A DNA stretch of 64,000 bases from a virus (Duplodnaviria; Heunggongvirae; Uroviricota; Caudoviricetes), in the IMG/VR virus record IMGVR_UViG_3300044259_000172; one strand, written 5' to 3'. The notes below the pieces were generated by a model. It worked only from the letters and a program-made list of their open reading frames with translations, had not been told where the DNA came from and did not search any database. Every line of letters starts with the position of its first letter. Within the stretch, counting starts at the first letter, position 1. Positions 3,659 through 63,990 of this stretch are shown here, in pieces. The position numbers and the translations under genes were made by a program.

Positions 3659-3679
3659 TTACTATTTATAAGATTTATT

Positions 3680-3997
3680 TTAAATACCCTTTGAATTTAT
3701 AAGGTATTCATATTTTCCAATAATAGAAACTAGTTGATTTCTATATTTGAAAATCCTATCATTCAAGACCCATCTTTCATAAATTTCTTGTTCATAATCT
3801 TTTCCTTTTCTATTCAAAAGAAATGAGTCTTTTAAGAAGAGAGGAAAGTCATACTTATTGACTCCGCATCCAGTGATCATCTTTTTTCTGGAATTGATTT
3901 CTTCTTCAATCATAAGTGAATTAAAAAAATTAAAAGATTCCTTAAGAAAGGACAGAGCTAATTCCCTATTTCCTTTAATGATTTCAATTTTTTCCAT
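3680..3997 (-). CDS. hypothetical protein (105 aa)
   Basis: ORF track; overlaps upstream gene by 14 bp, typical operon packing. Confidence 0.45.
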   Translation of the reverse strand: MEKIEIIKGNRELALSFLKESFNFFNSLMIEEEINSRKKMITGCGVNKYDFPLFLKDSFLLNRKGKDYEQEIYERWVLNDRIFKYRNQLVSIIGKYEYLINSKGI

Positions 3998-4346
3998 CTA
4001 ACTTATCCTCAAAATGATCAGAAATAGCTCCAGATAAACCTAGATAAGGATATTGGAAACATTTTACTTCAATTGTATTATTCTTTTCAGAAAATCCATC
4101 GAAAATTTCCTTAAGTTGAAGACATGTTTCAATTCCTTTATAGGAAAGGACATCTGAAGACTTTACACCATCAATATTATAATTGATAAGAGCAATTACT
4201 TCGGGATGATAATTTTCAATTCTTTTTAGCTTTTCTAAGTAAAGAAGATAATAAAGTCCATTCCACAGAATGGCTAAAGTGACAATAACTATGATAAATC
4301 GATAGAATTTTTTGTTGCCTTCATTCATTTTAATTTTTAATCCCAT
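3984..4346 (-). CDS. hypothetical membrane protein (N-terminal TM helix FYRFIIVIVTLAILWNGLYYLLY)
   Basis: ORF; hydrophobic segment. Confidence 0.45.
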   Translation of the reverse strand: MGLKIKMNEGNKKFYRFIIVIVTLAILWNGLYYLLYLEKLKRIENYHPEVIALINYNIDGVKSSDVLSYKGIETCLQLKEIFDGFSEKNNTIEVKCFQYPYLGLSGAISDHFEDKLDGKN

Positions 4347-4387
4347 TTTGGTATTGATTGAAGATATCTAGTTTAGATAGGAAATAA

Positions 4388-4496
4388 TAAGAAACAAGCT
4401 TTAGCTTGATCGTGAAACGATAATCTAAAACAATTTAGATTGTTTTGTTTCATCACTTTCAGTGATCCTCAAGCTAAAGCTTGCGGTTTCTTTTAA
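4388..4496. repeat. composite palindromic element in divergent intergenic region: outer inverted repeat AAGAAACAAGCTTTAGCTTG ... CAAGCTAAAGCTTGcggTTTCTT enclosing palindromes ATCGTGAAACGAT, ATCTAAAACAATTTAGAT and ATCACTTTCAGTGAT
   Basis: read directly; first ~35 bp recur at 63560. Confidence 0.6.
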
Positions 4497-4724
4497 TATA
4501 GATTTTAAGATTTCCTTTAAAATATTATACACCGGTCCTAGAATGTTGTACACAAAATAATGACAATTATTTCATAATTTCATTCAATTTGTCTCTCAAT
4601 GTATCAATAATATCTTTCGATTCACCTTTTATAATTGCATCAAGTTTTTCATATCGAACTCTTTGACTTTGCTAAAATTATTATACAAAATAAATCTCCT
4701 AAAGTAAACACTAATAAATAAAGA

Positions 4725-5168
4725 ATGAGTGGAAGACGGACATATCAAGGACAATATTATCCAATAAATGAATCGAAATATATTGGAGATCCTACAAAAA
4801 TAGTTTATAGATCATCATGGGAACTTCTCTTTTCAAAGTTTTTGGATTTTAATTCAAATGTAAAATTTTGGTCTTCAGAAGAAATTGTAATTCCTTATTA
4901 TTTTCCTTTAGACGGAAAAATGCATAGATATTTTCCAGATTATTGGGTAGAATTTCATAATGGGAAAAAGGTCATTATTGAGATAAAGCCTTATAATGAA
5001 ACTATAGAACCTGTCCTTAAAAAGGGAGGAAACAAAAGAGTTTTTGCGGATAGAATGGCAACATATTTAAAAAATAAAGCAAAATGGGAAGCTGCGAAAG
5101 AATTCTGTAAAGACCGAGGATGGGAATTTCATGTTTTTGATGAGCATTATTTAAAAAGATTGAAATAA
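4725..5168 (+). CDS. hypothetical protein with PD-(D/E)xK-like motif (FPDYW...VIIEIKP)
   Basis: plus-strand ORF after strand switch; D...E-x-K spacing consistent with restriction-endonuclease-like fold (weak). Confidence 0.45.
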   Translation: MSGRRTYQGQYYPINESKYIGDPTKIVYRSSWELLFSKFLDFNSNVKFWSSEEIVIPYYFPLDGKMHRYFPDYWVEFHNGKKVIIEIKPYNETIEPVLKKGGNKRVFADRMATYLKNKAKWEAAKEFCKDRGWEFHVFDEHYLKRLK

Positions 5169-27219: not shown

Positions 27220-27512
27220 TGCTTCCTCGCAATTATGTTATCTTACATAAATTATACGAAAATGGTGAGTAAAATATTCATCTACCGTATTATAGTGTTT
27301 ATCCTCTACCGTTCTCCATTTCCATTCAATCCAATCAAATGAAGTATTAAATCTAATCATAATTATTCTTTCTTATCATATTATGAAAATATTAGAAACA
27401 AAAATTATTCCAACTTAACACCTATATTTCATAGTTTCGTCTCGAGCATCCACTATGATCATTCAAGCTAAATAATTCCACGTATGGGTTTCTAATATTT
27501 TCCTAATAAGAT

Positions 27513-27607: not shown

Positions 27608-27613
27608 AATATT

Positions 27614-27689
27614 GGTGTGCCCTGTCAGGCTTGAACTGACGACCCTCTGCTTAAAAGGCAGATGCTCTAACCAACTGAGCTAAGGGCAC
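27614..27689 (-). tRNA. tRNA-Lys (anticodon UUU), CCA encoded
   Basis: minus-sense GTGCCCTtaGCTCAGTTGGTTAGAGCatCTGCCTTTTAAGCAGAgggtcGTCAGTTCAAGCCTGACAGGGCACaCCA: 7-bp acceptor, D-arm, anticodon loop CUUUUAA, T-arm all canonical. Confidence 0.8.
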
Positions 27690-27971: not shown

Positions 27972-28001
27972 AATATAGTCTATTTAAGAGGAATTGTAAA
28001 C
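27972..28001 (-). promoter_or_regulatory. T4-early-like promoter (GTTTACA-17-TATATT)
   Basis: minus-sense gttGTTTACAattcctcttaaatagacTATATTaaatc. Confidence 0.5.
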
Positions 28002-30140: not shown

Positions 30141-30662
30141 TTAAAGGTATGAGAAATCTGATGTCAATTCTTTTGCATCGGGACCAAATGCAAACATTCC
30201 TGTTGTAACATCATAAGCCTTGAAAATCAAGGATCCATCCTTTAGATGGTATTCAGGATCAATGACTTCTTTTGCGATACAAGCCAATTGATCAGAAAGA
30301 GCTATCGCTTCTTTAATCTTTGCATAAGATGCCTTTTTGACATAAACTGTACCGAAACCTTGAGGAGTTTCTTTTTTCCACTTGAGATATTCGGAAGAAA
30401 GAAATTGATTAATCCCCGAAGAAATGAATTTTTCAAATGTTTCATGAAAAACAGAAGTTGCGTGTGAAGCCTGGGCAGCTGCCCTGCCTTTAGTCATAGA
30501 CAAAGGCAAATCGTCTCGAACAACAATGTATAGACGACTCAATTTTTCATCTGAAGATACCAACATTTCATTTAATTGAAACTTTTCAGATGATTTTTGG
30601 GGAGGAATTCCTCCCCAAAAACTTTTTTCGATAAATGTATTTGCTTTCATATTCATATTCAT
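30141..30662 (-). CDS. peptidyl-tRNA hydrolase PTH2-family protein
   Basis: YIVVRDDLPLSMTKGRAAAQASHATS matches the PTH2 core (vvRtDL.M.kGKiaAQcsHAa). Confidence 0.55.
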   Translation of the reverse strand: MNMNMKANTFIEKSFWGGIPPQKSSEKFQLNEMLVSSDEKLSRLYIVVRDDLPLSMTKGRAAAQASHATSVFHETFEKFISSGINQFLSSEYLKWKKETPQGFGTVYVKKASYAKIKEAIALSDQLACIAKEVIDPEYHLKDGSLIFKAYDVTTGMFAFGPDAKELTSDFSYL

Positions 30663-30904: not shown

Positions 30905-31165
30905 AAATGTCGGTGAGAGGAACACCTCCCTAACGCTGCCGACCCAACATCATTGTTTTATATCTAGTTGTATATCTTATCTAGCTGTATATGTCTTAAA
31001 ATTTCAAGAACTTAGAGCATGATAAAATCTCCTTTTGATAGAGTTTGTTCATGTATATTAAATTTTATTCGTCGTATATCATCTATGTAAAATAATTAGA
31101 AAAAGAAATTAGAGCATGATAAAATCTCCTTTTAATTTATTTAAGCTTTTACTCTCTATCAGAGC
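30905..31165 (-). ncRNA. candidate non-coding or leader RNA: from T4-early-like promoter (~31166-31200) to GC-rich terminator hairpin (30908-30946); contains two copies of a 25-nt SD+AUG-CUC-UAA minigene
   Basis: promoter-like GTTTACA-18-TATATT on minus strand; hairpin gucgg...ggagg-uguu-ccucuc-a-ccgac followed by UUUU; no ORF longer than 2 codons behind the SD. Confidence 0.3.
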
Positions 31166-31217
31166 TTGTTTACATTTTGAATATACGCTATTCAACACAA
31201 AATGTAAACAACAAAAT

Positions 31218-52069: not shown

Positions 52070-52645
52070 TTAATCCTTAATTAGTGTTTCGTATGGAAAT
52101 GGTAGACGCTGAGGTTGCCACAATGGATGATTAGGATAATATTCGTAAGGGACGTTTGATTCTTCTTTAGTAATTTTCTTAAGAATTTCGTTCCAAATCT
52201 TATCATTGGAATTTTTAGATTGTTTAAATTCTTCAGGAGGTTCTTCAGGACCTTCATCATAATCAGAAACTTTTCCATATTCATCTGAAGGAGGTTCTGC
52301 CTTTTCTACCTTTGGTTTATCAATAATATGAAGAGACATCCAAGATTCAATAGGAAGATTTTCTAGCCATTTTTCTAGAGTAGGAATAAATCCTAGATCT
52401 TCAATTACATGTTGTTCGGCAATATCTCGTACTGAGACTTGATCTCCAAAAGAATTTGTAATAGTATAACCAAAAACTTGTTCTACCACAAAAATACCGA
52501 ATGTAGAATGAAAAACTGCTCGGTGGCGAGGATCAGCTAGACCGATTTTTGATTGATCCATAAATTGATGAATTTCGATATAGTCATCAACTTCACCACC
52601 AAATTTTTTTACTGAATTTACTGCATGCACATAAGGTTTTGACAT
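52070..52645 (-). CDS. hypothetical protein (191 aa; acidic P/E-rich C-terminal half)
   Basis: ORF; good promoter and RBS (AAGGA) upstream. Confidence 0.5.
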   Translation of the reverse strand: MSKPYVHAVNSVKKFGGEVDDYIEIHQFMDQSKIGLADPRHRAVFHSTFGIFVVEQVFGYTITNSFGDQVSVRDIAEQHVIEDLGFIPTLEKWLENLPIESWMSLHIIDKPKVEKAEPPSDEYGKVSDYDEGPEEPPEEFKQSKNSNDKIWNEILKKITKEESNVPYEYYPNHPLWQPQRLPFPYETLIKD

Positions 52646-55247: not shown

Positions 55248-56150
55248 ATGATCAATAAAATTTTTGAAGTGGAACATAATCCACATTATATCAATCGTTA
55301 CTTGAAGTTTATTAATTCTATCAAAGAATTAGGTGAAAGAACACATTTAATTACAGAAAAACATCATATATTACCAAGTAAATTATGGCCAGAATTTAAA
55401 AATCTTAGACAAAATAAATGGAATATGGTTAAACTTACTTATAGAGAACATTTTATCGCTCATCTTATTTTATTTAAGTGTTTTTGTGGAAATAGAAAAA
55501 TTAAAATGCTTCAAGCTCTAAATTTTATGATGAAGCATTCCAAAAAATCAAGTGTTTATCAAATCAAAAGAACTGAGTGGTTTCTCAAATTCGGTAAAGG
55601 AGAAAATCATCCTAATTTTGGAAATACTCATTCTCCTGAAACTCGGAATAAAATATCTGAATTTAGAAAAAATTTTACAGGTTGGAAACATTCCAAGGAA
55701 ACAAAATCTAAAATATCAAATACTAAAACTGGTAAACTTCGCTCAGAAGAAACTAAAAAGAAAATATCGGAATCACATATAGGTAAAATACTTTCAAGTG
55801 AAACAAAAGAAAAAATATCGAAAACTACAACAGGGAAAATTGTTTCTGAAGAAACAAAAGCCAAAATGTCAGAATCTCGAAAAGGAGAAAAACATCCTCT
55901 TTTCGGAAAAACTCATTCTGATGAAACCAGAAAGAAAATGTCAGAATCCCATAAAGGAGAAACCTCGCCAATGCGCGGAAAAACTCATTCTGATGAAACC
56001 AGAAAGAAAATGTCAGAAGCCCATAAAGGAGAAAAACATCCAATGTTTGGAAAGCCTCGATCTGAGGAAACAAAGGCCAAAATATCAGAATCCAAAAAAG
56101 GAAAGCTTCGCGGGCCTTATAAAAAGAAAAATCCGCGAATCCTGATTTAA
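55248..56150 (+). CDS. free-standing HNH homing endonuclease with about 8 tandem NUMOD3 DNA-binding repeats
   Basis: N-terminal HNH_3-like EKHHILPSKLW...NMVKLTYREHFIAH; repeats GKTHSDETRKKMSESHKGE...; only plus-strand gene in the replication module. Confidence 0.75.
   Translation: MINKIFEVEHNPHYINRYLKFINSIKELGERTHLITEKHHILPSKLWPEFKNLRQNKWNMVKLTYREHFIAHLILFKCFCGNRKIKMLQALNFMMKHSKKSSVYQIKRTEWFLKFGKGENHPNFGNTHSPETRNKISEFRKNFTGWKHSKETKSKISNTKTGKLRSEETKKKISESHIGKILSSETKEKISKTTTGKIVSEETKAKMSESRKGEKHPLFGKTHSDETRKKMSESHKGETSPMRGKTHSDETRKKMSEAHKGEKHPMFGKPRSEETKAKISESKKGKLRGPYKKKNPRILI
55860..56050 (+). repeat. near-perfect ~60-bp tandem nucleotide repeat inside the endonuclease gene (NUMOD3 units)
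   Basis: ggaaaaactcattctgatgaaaccagaaagaaaatgtcagaa(t/g)cccataaaggagaaa occurs twice. Confidence 0.7.
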
Positions 56151-62492: not shown

Positions 62493-63341
62493 TTAAGATT
62501 GAAGATACTTAGATGAGACAAATCCTATTGAATCTCCAGTTTTAATTTGTGTCCATGTAGAATCTACATCTCTAATCTTTGAAACCTTTGTTCCTTTAGA
62601 TAGTGTTTTGATGATAGAACTATTAGTGGATGGGTCAAATCTTAAATTTAAATTTGCAGTTGTAGTCAATACATTTTCCTCATTAGAATAATCATTCTGA
62701 GAAGCTTTTGTTCCATTTACATTTGAATAGAAATCATCTGGAAGACAAGGACCTGGATCACATTTTCTTAATGGAGCAATCATATCATGTCCAACTACTT
62801 CTTTAATTGGATATGCTTCTTTGAGAGCTTTAACTATTCCATAGAGAGCTTCCATTTGGGCCTTTGAAAACTCTACCCAATATTTTTTTGGACCACCATT
62901 TTTATGAGCAACAAAATTAATCTTATCATCCCTATCATTCCATTTTACTGTAGAAGAACCTGGATATTTGTAATAAGAAATTCCATCTTTTTCATATGCA
63001 AAATCAACAAATCCAGGATTTGTGACTTCTATACCAATTGAATATGAGTTTAGACCTTCAATTCCATTCCAACTAGATTTTCCTGCATGCCAAAGAATTT
63101 CTGAAAAATCTGAAATTTGAACCACCTCACCTTCTTTAGAAACAACTAGTTGGCAAGATGATTGGACATTTTGATCAGAAGATAATGTTCTAATATCAGA
63201 TTCAAATGTAATTCCTGCCGTATAGTGGATCACAATATAAGAAATTGGAAATTTTCTTTTACCGGAGGTTTTTGTTGTATTAAAGTGTTTAACCTGGTTT
63301 CCATCCCTGAAAAGAAGATTATTTTTTACTGTAAATGCCAT
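62493..63341 (-). CDS. endolysin: N-acetylmuramoyl-L-alanine amidase (Amidase_2/PGRP) with C-terminal SH3b-like binding domain
   Basis: IVIHYTAG, LWHAGKSSWNG, NSYSIGIEV, VGHDMIAPLRKCDPGP amidase_2 motifs; C-terminal ~70 aa SH3-like. Confidence 0.8.
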   Translation of the reverse strand: MAFTVKNNLLFRDGNQVKHFNTTKTSGKRKFPISYIVIHYTAGITFESDIRTLSSDQNVQSSCQLVVSKEGEVVQISDFSEILWHAGKSSWNGIEGLNSYSIGIEVTNPGFVDFAYEKDGISYYKYPGSSTVKWNDRDDKINFVAHKNGGPKKYWVEFSKAQMEALYGIVKALKEAYPIKEVVGHDMIAPLRKCDPGPCLPDDFYSNVNGTKASQNDYSNEENVLTTTANLNLRFDPSTNSSIIKTLSKGTKVSKIRDVDSTWTQIKTGDSIGFVSSKYLQS

Positions 63342-63556
63342 TTTATTATTATTTACTCCTGTAGGACTTTGTAATATTATTTATCTTTTGTGGCGAGATA
63401 AAGTATATGATATTAACAATTGTTAATTTTACAAAAATAACATACTACTGGATTAAATTTCATAATTTATTAAATTTCGTGCATTATTTTGTGTACAACA
63501 TTCTAGGACCGGTGTATAATATTTTAAAGGAAATCTTAAAATCTATATTAAAAGAA

Positions 63557-63625
63557 ACAAGCTTTAGCTTGTATCGTGAAACGATTAATCTAGATTATAT
63601 CTAGATAATAAAACTAATCATCATT
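63557..63625. repeat. second copy of the three-palindrome element (CAAGCTTTAGCTTG, ATCGTGAAACGAT, AATCTAGAT-tat-ATCTAGAT)
   Basis: about 35 bp near-identical to 4388-4425. Confidence 0.6.
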
Positions 63626-63648
63626 TCATGATGATGCTAAAGCAATCT

Positions 63649-63990
63649 TTAAGATTTAATTTTAGCTAGACCTTTAAATTTAGGTAAAGGCTTTAATTCG
63701 GAAAATGTCTTCTTAGATTTATTAACAAAAATGTCATCCAAAGATATTTTTTGTGTACAAATATCTCTGAGTATGATATTTATAGCAATAGAGTCAATAA
63801 TATCACAGGATGTTCCTTCAATTTTACATCCTAACTTCTCATGAAGGTAATAACCATATTTTGAATGAAAACTATCAGCCATTAATTCCTTATTAGCTGT
63901 TCCTTTACCAGAAAATAACTTCTTGATGGAAGTAGGAGGTAATTGGATCATTTCCTTTTTGGATAAACTCCATATCATATATTTGATCAT
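63649..63990 (-). CDS. hypothetical protein (113 aa); weak resemblance to RuvC/A22-like resolvases
   Basis: ORF track; assignment speculative. Confidence 0.3.
   Translation of the reverse strand: MIKYMIWSLSKKEMIQLPPTSIKKLFSGKGTANKELMADSFHSKYGYYLHEKLGCKIEGTSCDIIDSIAINIILRDICTQKISLDDIFVNKSKKTFSELKPLPKFKGLAKIKS

Follow-up and report, generated by a model that had tools for sequence, protein, structure and literature searches.

In T4-like phages, early and late gene expression is thought to be controlled mostly via promoters and simple terminators, and the T4 replication origins oriF(uvsY) and oriG(34) combine a promoter with a DNA unwinding element. A further type of intergenic element is formed by the promoter-early stem-loop (PeSL) cassettes of T4-type phages, for which both promoter and terminator activity has been shown experimentally and which recombine with each other (Arbiol et al. 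2010, PMC2839356; Comeau et al. 2014, PMC4122927). With the PeSL cassettes a module was added that regulates expression and at the same time drives recombination. The module described here is related to these but differs in structure; it was found in a 64,000-nucleotide stretch (the window) of the virus record IMGVR_UViG_3300044259_000172. Its first copy contains a nested palindrome at positions 4389-4492, located in the 378-bp intergenic region (4347-4724) between a minus-strand open reading frame (ORF; 3984..4346) and the plus-strand gene of the head-completion protein gp4 (4725..5168; PHROGs head closure, E 6.5e-53). The palindrome is joined to a 76-nt cassette with a consensus early promoter, of which an exact second copy, also followed by hairpins, lies upstream of an endolysin gene. 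We tentatively regard the module as a PeSL-like combination of an early promoter and stem-loops, which would make a short structured RNA and insulate in both directions; the chance that this is correct is put somewhat below even.

The nested palindrome had been noticed in an original prediction made without database searches, and it is indeed present, with all quoted sequences in place and a start that is shifted by one base; the TTTCTT quoted as the end of the outer repeat corresponds to 4487-4492 (located as GTTTCTT at 4486-4492). Three perfect inner palindromes are enclosed by an outer inverted repeat of 15-22 bp (4389-4492), of which the 15-nt arms are 100% complementary. On the minus strand, the left arm (4389-4408) contains a 5-bp hairpin, CAAGC-UAAA-GCUUG, followed by UUUCUUAUUAUUU. 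Folding of both strands, one of the checks proposed with the prediction, yields highly stable structures: as RNA, the segment 4380-4505 folds at -40.7 kcal/mol on the plus strand (z -7.87) and at -39.1 kcal/mol on the minus strand (z -6.86), and with DNA parameters at -28.4 kcal/mol (z -7.80), while 0 of 200 shuffles are as stable. In a 120-nt sliding scan of the whole 64 kb, the element ranks first on the plus strand and third on the minus strand (most negative GC-corrected values). The GGAAAT sequence just outside the left arm is predicted to close the whole structure of copy 1 by pairing near the 5′ end of a minus-strand transcript (Table 1), and is possibly also a remnant of an inverted cassette copy.

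The proposed search for the core of the arm, CAAGCTTTAGCTTG, also gave a positive result. Allowing up to two mismatches, six matches are found on both strands of the window (0.36 expected), distributed over three sites, the third of which, at 63558-63571, is an additional one. Next to this site, the segment 4487-4562 is repeated exactly, in inverted orientation, as 63557-63482, and if the adjoining 14-nt arm is included, 90 of 93 aligned positions match. The two copies are inverted relative to each other and 59 kb apart, and no other long-range repeat in the window comes close to the pair in size; the copy count of two covers the window and about 6 kb to its left, within a JGI source contig of 154 kb. 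In the original prediction the palindrome was a stand-alone dyad, and both the second copy and the membership of the right arm in a longer exact repeat were missed. The dyad symmetry stands, but the element does not stand alone: taken with the repeat and the promoter, it appears to be the hairpin part, putatively transcribed, of an early-promoter cassette that is present twice.

Copy 1 precedes gp4; copy 2 is situated between the stop of a minus-strand ORF (63649..63990), with whose stop codon its hairpin array overlaps, and the start of the Amidase_2/SH3 endolysin gene (62493..63341). The array of copy 2 also folds significantly on both strands (z -4.2). The interiors of the two copies align on the same strand (score 17.5, versus -0.4 +/- 3.4 for shuffles) and the cassettes on opposite strands, so that with respect to the cassette the interior is flipped. 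Beyond each array, on the side away from the cassette, remnants of the latter are found (GGAAAT...AAGAAAC in copy 1 and GCTAAAGC...TTTAAGATTT in copy 2), which fit either an ancestral larger palindrome that decayed differently in the two copies, or template switching between the arms. Wherever it covers the window, an independent Logan assembly (SRR35908198) is 100% identical. Its three contigs each stop 26-30 nt into the repeat, the behaviour expected in a k=31 graph of a sequence that is truly present twice; for the 59 kb that separate the inverted repeats, the orientation given is that of the source assembly. Two indirect signs touch on recombination, i.e., the identity of the copies and the breakage of short-k assemblies inside the cassette. 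In a comparison with hix/gix sites, the arms are 6+2+6 palindromes with an asymmetric centre around a flipped interior; this interior is only 59 bp long and has a single orientation in the independent assembly. A miniature inverted-repeat transposable element (MITE) or other transposable element was rejected, since there is no target duplication at the arms, copy 2 lacks one arm, only two copies are present and the loci are orthologous in relatives.

In copy 1 the cassette promoter is located on the minus strand, with a -35 box TGTACA (4552-4547), a 17-nt spacer, a -10 box TATAAT (4529-4524) and an inferred start near 4517. In both copies the promoter points into the hairpins and is preceded by the AT-rich sequence ATTATTTTG. 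In a promoter scan of the window, scored against a T4-like early consensus with a maximum of 12, the full 12/12 is reached by the cassette promoter in both copies and by one site outside the cassette, at 52639 on the plus strand. The sequence context of the cassette promoter, TTTTG-T(G/T)TACA, is that of the other intergenic early-type promoters of the phage, including minus-strand sites at 28000, 31208, 19459, 11144, 58403, 52699 and 18631 with the -35 context TTG-T(T/G)TACA. These other promoters are followed within ~15-40 nt by an apparent Shine-Dalgarno (SD) sequence and ATG, whereas the cassette promoters are followed instead by 120-170 nt of non-coding hairpins. At 31260-30840 (minus strand), two early-type promoters are arranged in tandem, one at 31208 (TTTACA-17-TATATT) and one at 31091 (TTTACA-18-TAAAAT). 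After each comes a copy of one 34-nt repeat with AAGGAG and a two-codon mini-ORF (ATG CTC TAA); next come a GGTCGG...CCGAC hairpin and a T-run, and the unit is maybe another small non-coding or leader unit.

The predicted transcript of copy 1 (4518 to 4347) adopts a closed multi-hairpin fold of -43.8 kcal/mol (z -6.43), and that of copy 2 likewise adopts a closed multi-hairpin fold (z -4.2). In both, the AU-rich leader, which comprises 33 nt with only ~5 G/C, pairs with sequence beyond the array, such that the hairpins lie inside the closing stem. Terminator-like matches face outward at 4470-4483 on the plus strand, followed by CGGTTTCTTT, and at 4408-4395 on the minus strand, followed by TTTCTTATTA; in copy 2 such a match is found at 63572-63557 on the minus strand, facing the amidase gene. 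The stems of these terminator arms are only 5 bp locally and their strength is uncertain. The element as a whole, with an A-tract on the left and a T-tract on the right, resembles bidirectional terminators, and because it is nearly dyad-symmetric the opposite strand shows an equivalent hairpin and T-run facing gp4 (4470-4494). The prediction had suggested a regulatory or origin-like site and had regarded the symmetry as not explained by a terminator. A regulatory, non-coding element that is more than an ordinary terminator at a gene end agrees with the present results, whereas the statement on the terminator was too strong in view of the terminator-like outward arms.

Several other assignments for the cassette were tried and discarded. 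A MotA-type middle promoter, read from AGCTTTA, does not fit on inspection because of its spacing to any -10 box. A small protein was rejected, since the frame is open in both copies but copy 1 lacks a start codon. The late promoter sequence TATAAATA is absent from the cassette, and late-like boxes are located nearer to the genes. As to a seed for a trans-acting small RNA, the best duplex between the leader and any start region in the window has -20.8 kcal/mol, and 30% of shuffled leaders do as well. Searches of Rfam at gathering and at permissive thresholds revealed no family at the element (best match ~17 bits versus thresholds of 39-80) and none in the loci of the relatives, and ARAGORN found nothing at the element.

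Table 1. Coordinates of the two module copies and of nearby late-promoter-like boxes in the window.
Feature	Position	Strand	Remarks
Cassette, copy 1	4487-4562	-	76-nt exact repeat with T4-type early promoter
Left outer arm, copy 1	4389-4408		AAGAAAC + CAAGCTTTAGCTTG (6+2+6 palindrome)
Inner hairpin 1, copy 1	4409-4421		ATCGTGAAACGAT, ATCG-TGAAA-CGAT; same as 63573-63585
Inner hairpin 2, copy 1	4422-4441		AATCTAAAACAATTTAGATT; stem-loop AATCTAAA-ACAA-TTTAGATT
Inner hairpin 3, copy 1	4452-4466		ATCACTTTCAGTGAT; stem-loop ATCAC-TTTCA-GTGAT
Right outer arm, copy 1	4470-4483	+	CAAGCTAAAGCTTG, then CGG, then T-run to 4494; terminator-like, facing gp4
GGAAAT, copy 1	4380-4385	+	AUUUCC in minus-strand transcript; predicted pairing with GGAAAU 4515-4510 near transcript 5′ end
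Cassette, copy 2	63482-63557	+	promoter -35 63492-63497, -10 63515-63520, inferred start near 63527
Hairpin array, copy 2	63558-63657	+	adjoins cassette copy 2
Arm CAAGCTTTAGCTTG, copy 2	63558-63571		
Hairpin 1, copy 2	63573-63585		same as hairpin 1 of copy 1
Hairpin 2, copy 2	63587-63606		base of stem kept, top differs yet is complementary
Hairpin 3, copy 2	63617-63635		ATCATCA-TTTCA-TGATGAT; loop of copy 1 kept, other complementary stem
Far arm GCTAAAGC, copy 2	63636-63643		degenerate
TTTAAGATTT, copy 2	63648-63657		pairs with leader AAATCTTAAA 63531-63540
Late-promoter-like box, gp4	4713-4720		AATAAATA
Late-promoter-like box, amidase	63385-63378	-	GATAAATA

The proposed comparison with relatives showed that the element is conserved in kind. 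IMG/VR contains no close relative of the phage (best gp4 identity 54%); among ~80 IMG/VR gp4 loci at ~50% identity, three have a promoter-like match pointing away from gp4 and none of these is followed by a hairpin array. An exact 20-mer of the cassette has no match in IMG/VR, and an 18-mer of the arm has only chance matches there, in coding regions of unrelated phages. On these searches the feature is confined to a small clade. A single match in a metagenome and a single match in a GTDB genome were discarded, both being the same Pelagibacter radical-SAM coding sequence, and so were the 31 matches of an IMG/VR scan for TAWAAT-N10-AAATCTTWAAATC, which are attributed to chance, as none has a -35 box or hairpins.

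Closer relatives were taken from a protein database. A 153-kb ENA contig encodes a gp4 that is 68% identical and an amidase that is 54% identical. The regions upstream of its gp4 (locus L093) and its amidase (L103) share blocks of 24 nt, 82 nt (99% identity) and 19-22 nt, which are unrelated in sequence to the cassette of the window. The best promoter-like sites at these loci are outward promoters, TTTACA-17-TATAAT and TTTACA-17-TAAAAT, of which the -35 and -10 boxes are kept and the spacer has diverged, and the downstream RNA is predicted to form an outer stem with one G.U pair around two triloop hairpins. Perfect TATAAATA late promoters are located between cassette and gene. The sequence AAATCTT(A/T)AAATC, ~10 nt after the -10 box, is common to this relative and the window, and at the position of the arm L103 contains ATGATC-TAAA-GATCAT, in which the loop is kept and the half-sites are changed. 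In another related phage (amidase 60% identical), the region upstream of the amidase (L104) contains GTGTACAAC...TACAAT, a promoter-like sequence recognised by reading, which points away from the amidase into nested hairpins. Together with the window and the 153-kb relative, L104 shows an early-type promoter directed into nested hairpins. In the relative whose gp4 is closest (77% identical), the intergenic region ahead of this gene (L098) is short and contains an arm palindrome in which the closing pair is swapped, GAAGCTAAAGCTTC, and a T-run; this unit lies downstream of an early-type promoter and points towards gp4.

A third lineage, which is represented by contigs from two different samples of one study series, has 100%-identical blocks of 76 and 34 nt that are shared by two loci, one preceding the gp4 operon (L095) and the other the amidase (L106). 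The core of this block is also retained in a fourth related phage, ahead of the amidase gene (L108), together with CTTGAAGCT-TC-AGCTTCAAG. The Logan contigs of the relatives' lineages also break inside their cassettes. Judged from the assembled sequences, a genome-specific cassette is common to the upstream regions of gp4 and endolysin in the genome of the window and in the 153-kb relative, and the third lineage, as pieced together from two samples, appears to have its own cassette at the gp4 and amidase loci.

Some further features were observed at these loci. Upstream of the cassette of the third lineage (L106, 2570-2640), GTTTACA boxes occur as palindromes (TGTTTACAATTGTAAACA and TTCACAATTGTAAAC), possibly an operator or back-to-back -35 boxes. 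Three contigs from two related phages (L095 6919, L106 2744 and L108 3807) have the sequence CACTCTTGACGGAGAGCTTCAGCTCGGAGGCAGAGTG-ATG in identical form; it comprises an outer stem CACTCT/AGAGTG around a GAGC-TTCA-GCTC hairpin, with GGAGG 7 nt before the ATG, and as the short ORF that follows is not conserved, it resembles a translational control hairpin. Homing-endonuclease-like genes (SegE GIY-YIG, HNH) are found just upstream of gp4 at L098 (520-1017) and L101 (460-999); the region upstream of gp4 is seemingly an insertion hotspot.

The exact repeat could in principle be a functionless palindromic scar of recombination or slippage, kept identical by gene conversion in a recombinogenic phage. 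The 100% identity of the cassette beside diverged flanks, the flipped interior, which is expected from template switching within inverted repeats, and the cassette remnants on the far side of each array would all agree with such an origin. Against it, the window, the 153-kb relative and the two-sample third lineage all carry a shared cassette at these two loci despite complete sequence turnover, the hairpins stay complementary through substitutions, and the promoter hexamers are kept where the spacer diverges. We consider a scar very unlikely.

The pattern of changes also bears on whether the palindromes act as folded single strands or as duplex DNA. The branched nesting, the varying stems with kept loops and the complementary stem changes between the copies, together with the G.U pair in the outer stem of the relative and the C-TAAA-G loop on a different stem at L103, favour a folded single strand, most simply RNA, rather than a site recognised as duplex. 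In the opposite case, a phage protein would bind the duplex as an operator or cruciform, or the site would be a hotspot for a structure-specific nuclease or for recombination, with AAGCT-NN-AGCTT as recognition core. AGCTWWAGCT is indeed present three times in the window (0.26 expected), related palindromes are found at the same loci (GAAGCT-AA-AGCTTC at L098, the palindrome of L108 and GAGCT-TC-AGCTC in lineage 3), and the ORF abutting copy 2 weakly matches a RuvC-like resolvase family (PHROGs, E 2.7e-07). However, the changed half-sites around the kept loop of L103 fit a hairpin, the inner palindromes vary in stem length while their loops are conserved, the nested branched layout is unlike the product of cruciform extrusion, and a candidate binding protein was not identified. 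A duplex site is judged improbable. Of the cruciform, protein-binding site or origin that had been suggested for the palindrome, nothing was found here that speaks specifically for any of them.

According to the PeSL-like reading, a host-sigma70-type early promoter in the 76-nt repeat would fire into the palindrome, on the minus strand from ~4517 and on the plus strand from ~63527. The product would be a non-coding RNA of ~125-140 nt, whose 5′ AU-rich leader may pair with sequence beyond the hairpins, leaving two or three short perfect hairpins inside the closing stem; in copy 1 the RNA would end with CAAGC-UAAA-GCUUG and a U-tract. Because the element is nearly dyad-symmetric, a polymerase arriving from the other side would also meet a hairpin and a U-tract, and the module could act as a two-way insulator between the early promoter side and the late genes of gp4 and endolysin, each of which has its own late-promoter-like box nearer to the start codon. 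The copies would be kept identical by gene conversion or selection. The repeat itself, its structures, the matches to the promoter consensus and the conserved arrangement in relatives are direct findings, whereas transcription, termination and any action of the RNA in trans are inferred.

Several observations weigh against this reading. The promoters and terminators are consensus matches in DNA with 70% A+T. Termination is doubtful in copy 2, whose far arm is degenerate and whose U-run is short. The 153-kb relative has no terminator after the hairpins in the direction of the promoter, and its RNA may thus be a 5′ leader rather than a discrete small RNA; at the loci of the third lineage (L095 and L106) no outward promoter was found. 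Which strand carries the GAA and which the UUC loops varies between lineages. As a consequence of the flipped interior, the RNA bodies of the two copies are complementary, which argues against a sequence-specific function of the RNA and fits a merely structural or DNA-level role.

The latter point also affects a sequence-specific alternative, in which the array would be an antitermination or RNA-stability element of the lambda nut or HK022 put type, one per early operon, with a lineage-specific sequence matched to a phage factor or RNA polymerase. Such an element would explain why two copies are present, each directly after an early-type promoter, which are identical within the genome and different between lineages, and co-directional genes do follow in copy 1 and L093. 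In copy 2 and L103, however, the promoter faces convergent genes, where nothing is available to antiterminate, the two RNAs are complementary and no Rfam match was obtained. This alternative seems highly improbable.

The last of the findings at odds with the PeSL-like reading is a weaker promoter-like site, TTTAAA-17-TAGAAT, which overlaps the cassette in both copies and is directed towards the gene. It would be explained if the module were a classical PeSL in the reverse direction, with an array that terminates transcription coming towards gp4 or the amidase and a co-directional cassette promoter that restarts the gene; the outward promoter would then be incidental or one half of a bidirectional promoter. 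The succession of stem-loop, T-run, AT-rich stretch, -35, -10 and gene corresponds to the published PeSL layout, the C-TAAA-G hairpin with T-rich sequence faces the late gene at both window copies, L098 and L103, the array of copy 2 is positioned exactly at the 3′ end of an upstream co-directional ORF, and the 153-kb relative also contains a gene-directed site, TTGATT-18-TATTAT. Yet the gene-directed sites score only 9/12 and were found neither by reading at L104 nor by the scan at L103, whereas scores of 10-12/12 are reached by the outward sites of four loci, whose spacers all measure 17 nt and whose hexamers, in the relative, are kept despite spacer divergence. Moreover, the cassette ends 143-165 nt before the start codons, a distance that includes the late-promoter-like box, and not at an SD sequence, and gp4 and amidase have these late-promoter-like boxes of their own. 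The reversed arrangement is regarded as unlikely.

A different function for the outward promoter would be the priming of DNA synthesis. In this alternative, the module would be a transcription-primed replication origin, two per genome, comparable to T4 oriF(uvsY) and oriG(34), in which the hairpins stabilise the opened state or serve in priming or loading. The strong promoter followed by an AT-rich 33-nt leader, the presence of two copies in the window, the very stable fold with DNA parameters and the recurrence of short GAA/TTC-looped palindromes in relatives are consistent with such a role. None of these features is origin-specific, and the AT-rich leader is not distinctive in a genome of ~70% A+T. 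In addition, the GC skew tracks gene orientation only, there are no iterons and no adjacent initiator gene, and the strand with the GAA loops is not consistently the displaced strand. An origin is considered improbable, and the PeSL-like promoter and hairpin module is retained as the favoured reading.

The phage that carries the module is uncultured and, by its gene content, T4-like. The window has a G+C content of ~30% and contains T4-type genes for baseplate proteins (gp48- and gp53-like) and gp4 (PHROGs), and Pfam families on the called genes include DNA ligase, clamp loader, gp46/47-like and sigma-related proteins; its B-family polymerase shares only ~35% identity with the polymerase of any phage isolate. 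The perfect T4 late box TATAAATA is under-represented in the window (5 versus 11.7 expected from shuffles), and one of these boxes (3663-3670, minus strand) immediately precedes the gp48-like gene. A perfect 28-bp palindrome, TTTTTGGGGAGGAATTCCTCCCCAAAAA (30594-30621), in the first codons of a minus-strand ORF (30141..30662), ranks among the most structured spots of the window. Three 72-nt tandem repeats that are 75-81% identical are found at 55833-56102 inside a plus-strand ORF (55248..56150), and Logan contig L090 ends there. The only Rfam/ARAGORN match in the window is a tRNA-Lys (anticodon TTT) at 27613-27689 on the minus strand (Rfam span 27616-27689), with a 25-nt inverted repeat nearby (27375-27399 / 27488-27512).

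An identical pair per genome is maintained at the head-completion and lysis loci despite sequence turnover, in the window, the 153-kb relative and, as far as the two-sample contigs show, the third lineage, and such concerted evolution usually marks elements that match a shared partner, i.e., a protein, an RNA polymerase or each other. It is conceivable, although rather doubtful at present, that these paired loci, concerted within a genome, turned over between lineages and anchored at gp4 and endolysin, represent either early-promoter-driven closed multi-hairpin non-coding RNAs or transcription-primed origins, as a class that is not in Rfam and is distinct from PeSLs in architecture and placement. 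If the RNA or the origin reading is true, the module would open early regulation or replication to experimental study in an uncultured phage group that is abundant. Recombination between the 90-bp inverted repeats is further predicted to invert the 59-kb segment, and these repeats would explain why short-read assemblies of these phages break there.

Compared with known systems, the element is similar to bidirectional intrinsic terminators in having a dyad hairpin between an A-tract and a T-tract, and terminator-like matches facing both ways. It differs from these in that copy 1 is located between divergent instead of convergent genes and in having an AT-rich, branched stem with a 59-nt interior, coupled to a promoter that is directed into the element. 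Like lambda nutL/nutR and HK022 putL/putR, it consists of two promoter-proximal hairpin elements per genome that are mutually similar and lineage-specific; unlike these, it has no consistent downstream operon, its interiors are flipped, and neither conserved loops of the boxA/boxB kind nor a partner protein was identified. The similarity to T4 oriF(uvsY) and oriG(34) lies in the layout alone, with a promoter leading into an AT-rich, structure-prone stretch and more than one copy per genome, whereas the T4 origins use MotA-dependent middle promoters and lack nested palindromes.

The closest correspondence is with the promoter/terminator cassettes of T4-type phages, which the module resembles in the arrangement of its predicted parts. 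As in PeSLs, a conserved intergenic module of ~100 bp is repeated in the genome of a T4-like phage, has a lineage-specific sequence, combines a strong sigma70-like early promoter and AT-rich upstream sequence with a stem-loop predicted to be able to terminate, and is long enough to recombine. The window genome also contains a typical PeSL-style site on the minus strand (18631-18590), where TGTACA-17-TATACT, with a perfect 22-nt palindrome, GGGTTCAGTATATACTGAACCC, over the -10 box, lies just upstream of an ORF in the classical PeSL layout. In contrast to the single G/C-run hairpin at or before the promoter of a PeSL, the present module has a 100-nt nested array downstream of the start site, with three hairpins inside a long stem. 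Its promoter does not abut an SD sequence and ATG, and in copy 2 faces the 3′ end of a convergent ORF. Furthermore, only two copies are seen in 64 kb, beside the core genes of gp4 and endolysin, whereas PeSLs flank ORFans in hyperplastic regions, and the same two loci carry a cassette in several lineages. Since promoter, stem-loop and repetition agree with the PeSL description, whereas gene abutment and ORFan flanks are lacking, the module is best described as a variant of the PeSL cassettes and not as a member of them.

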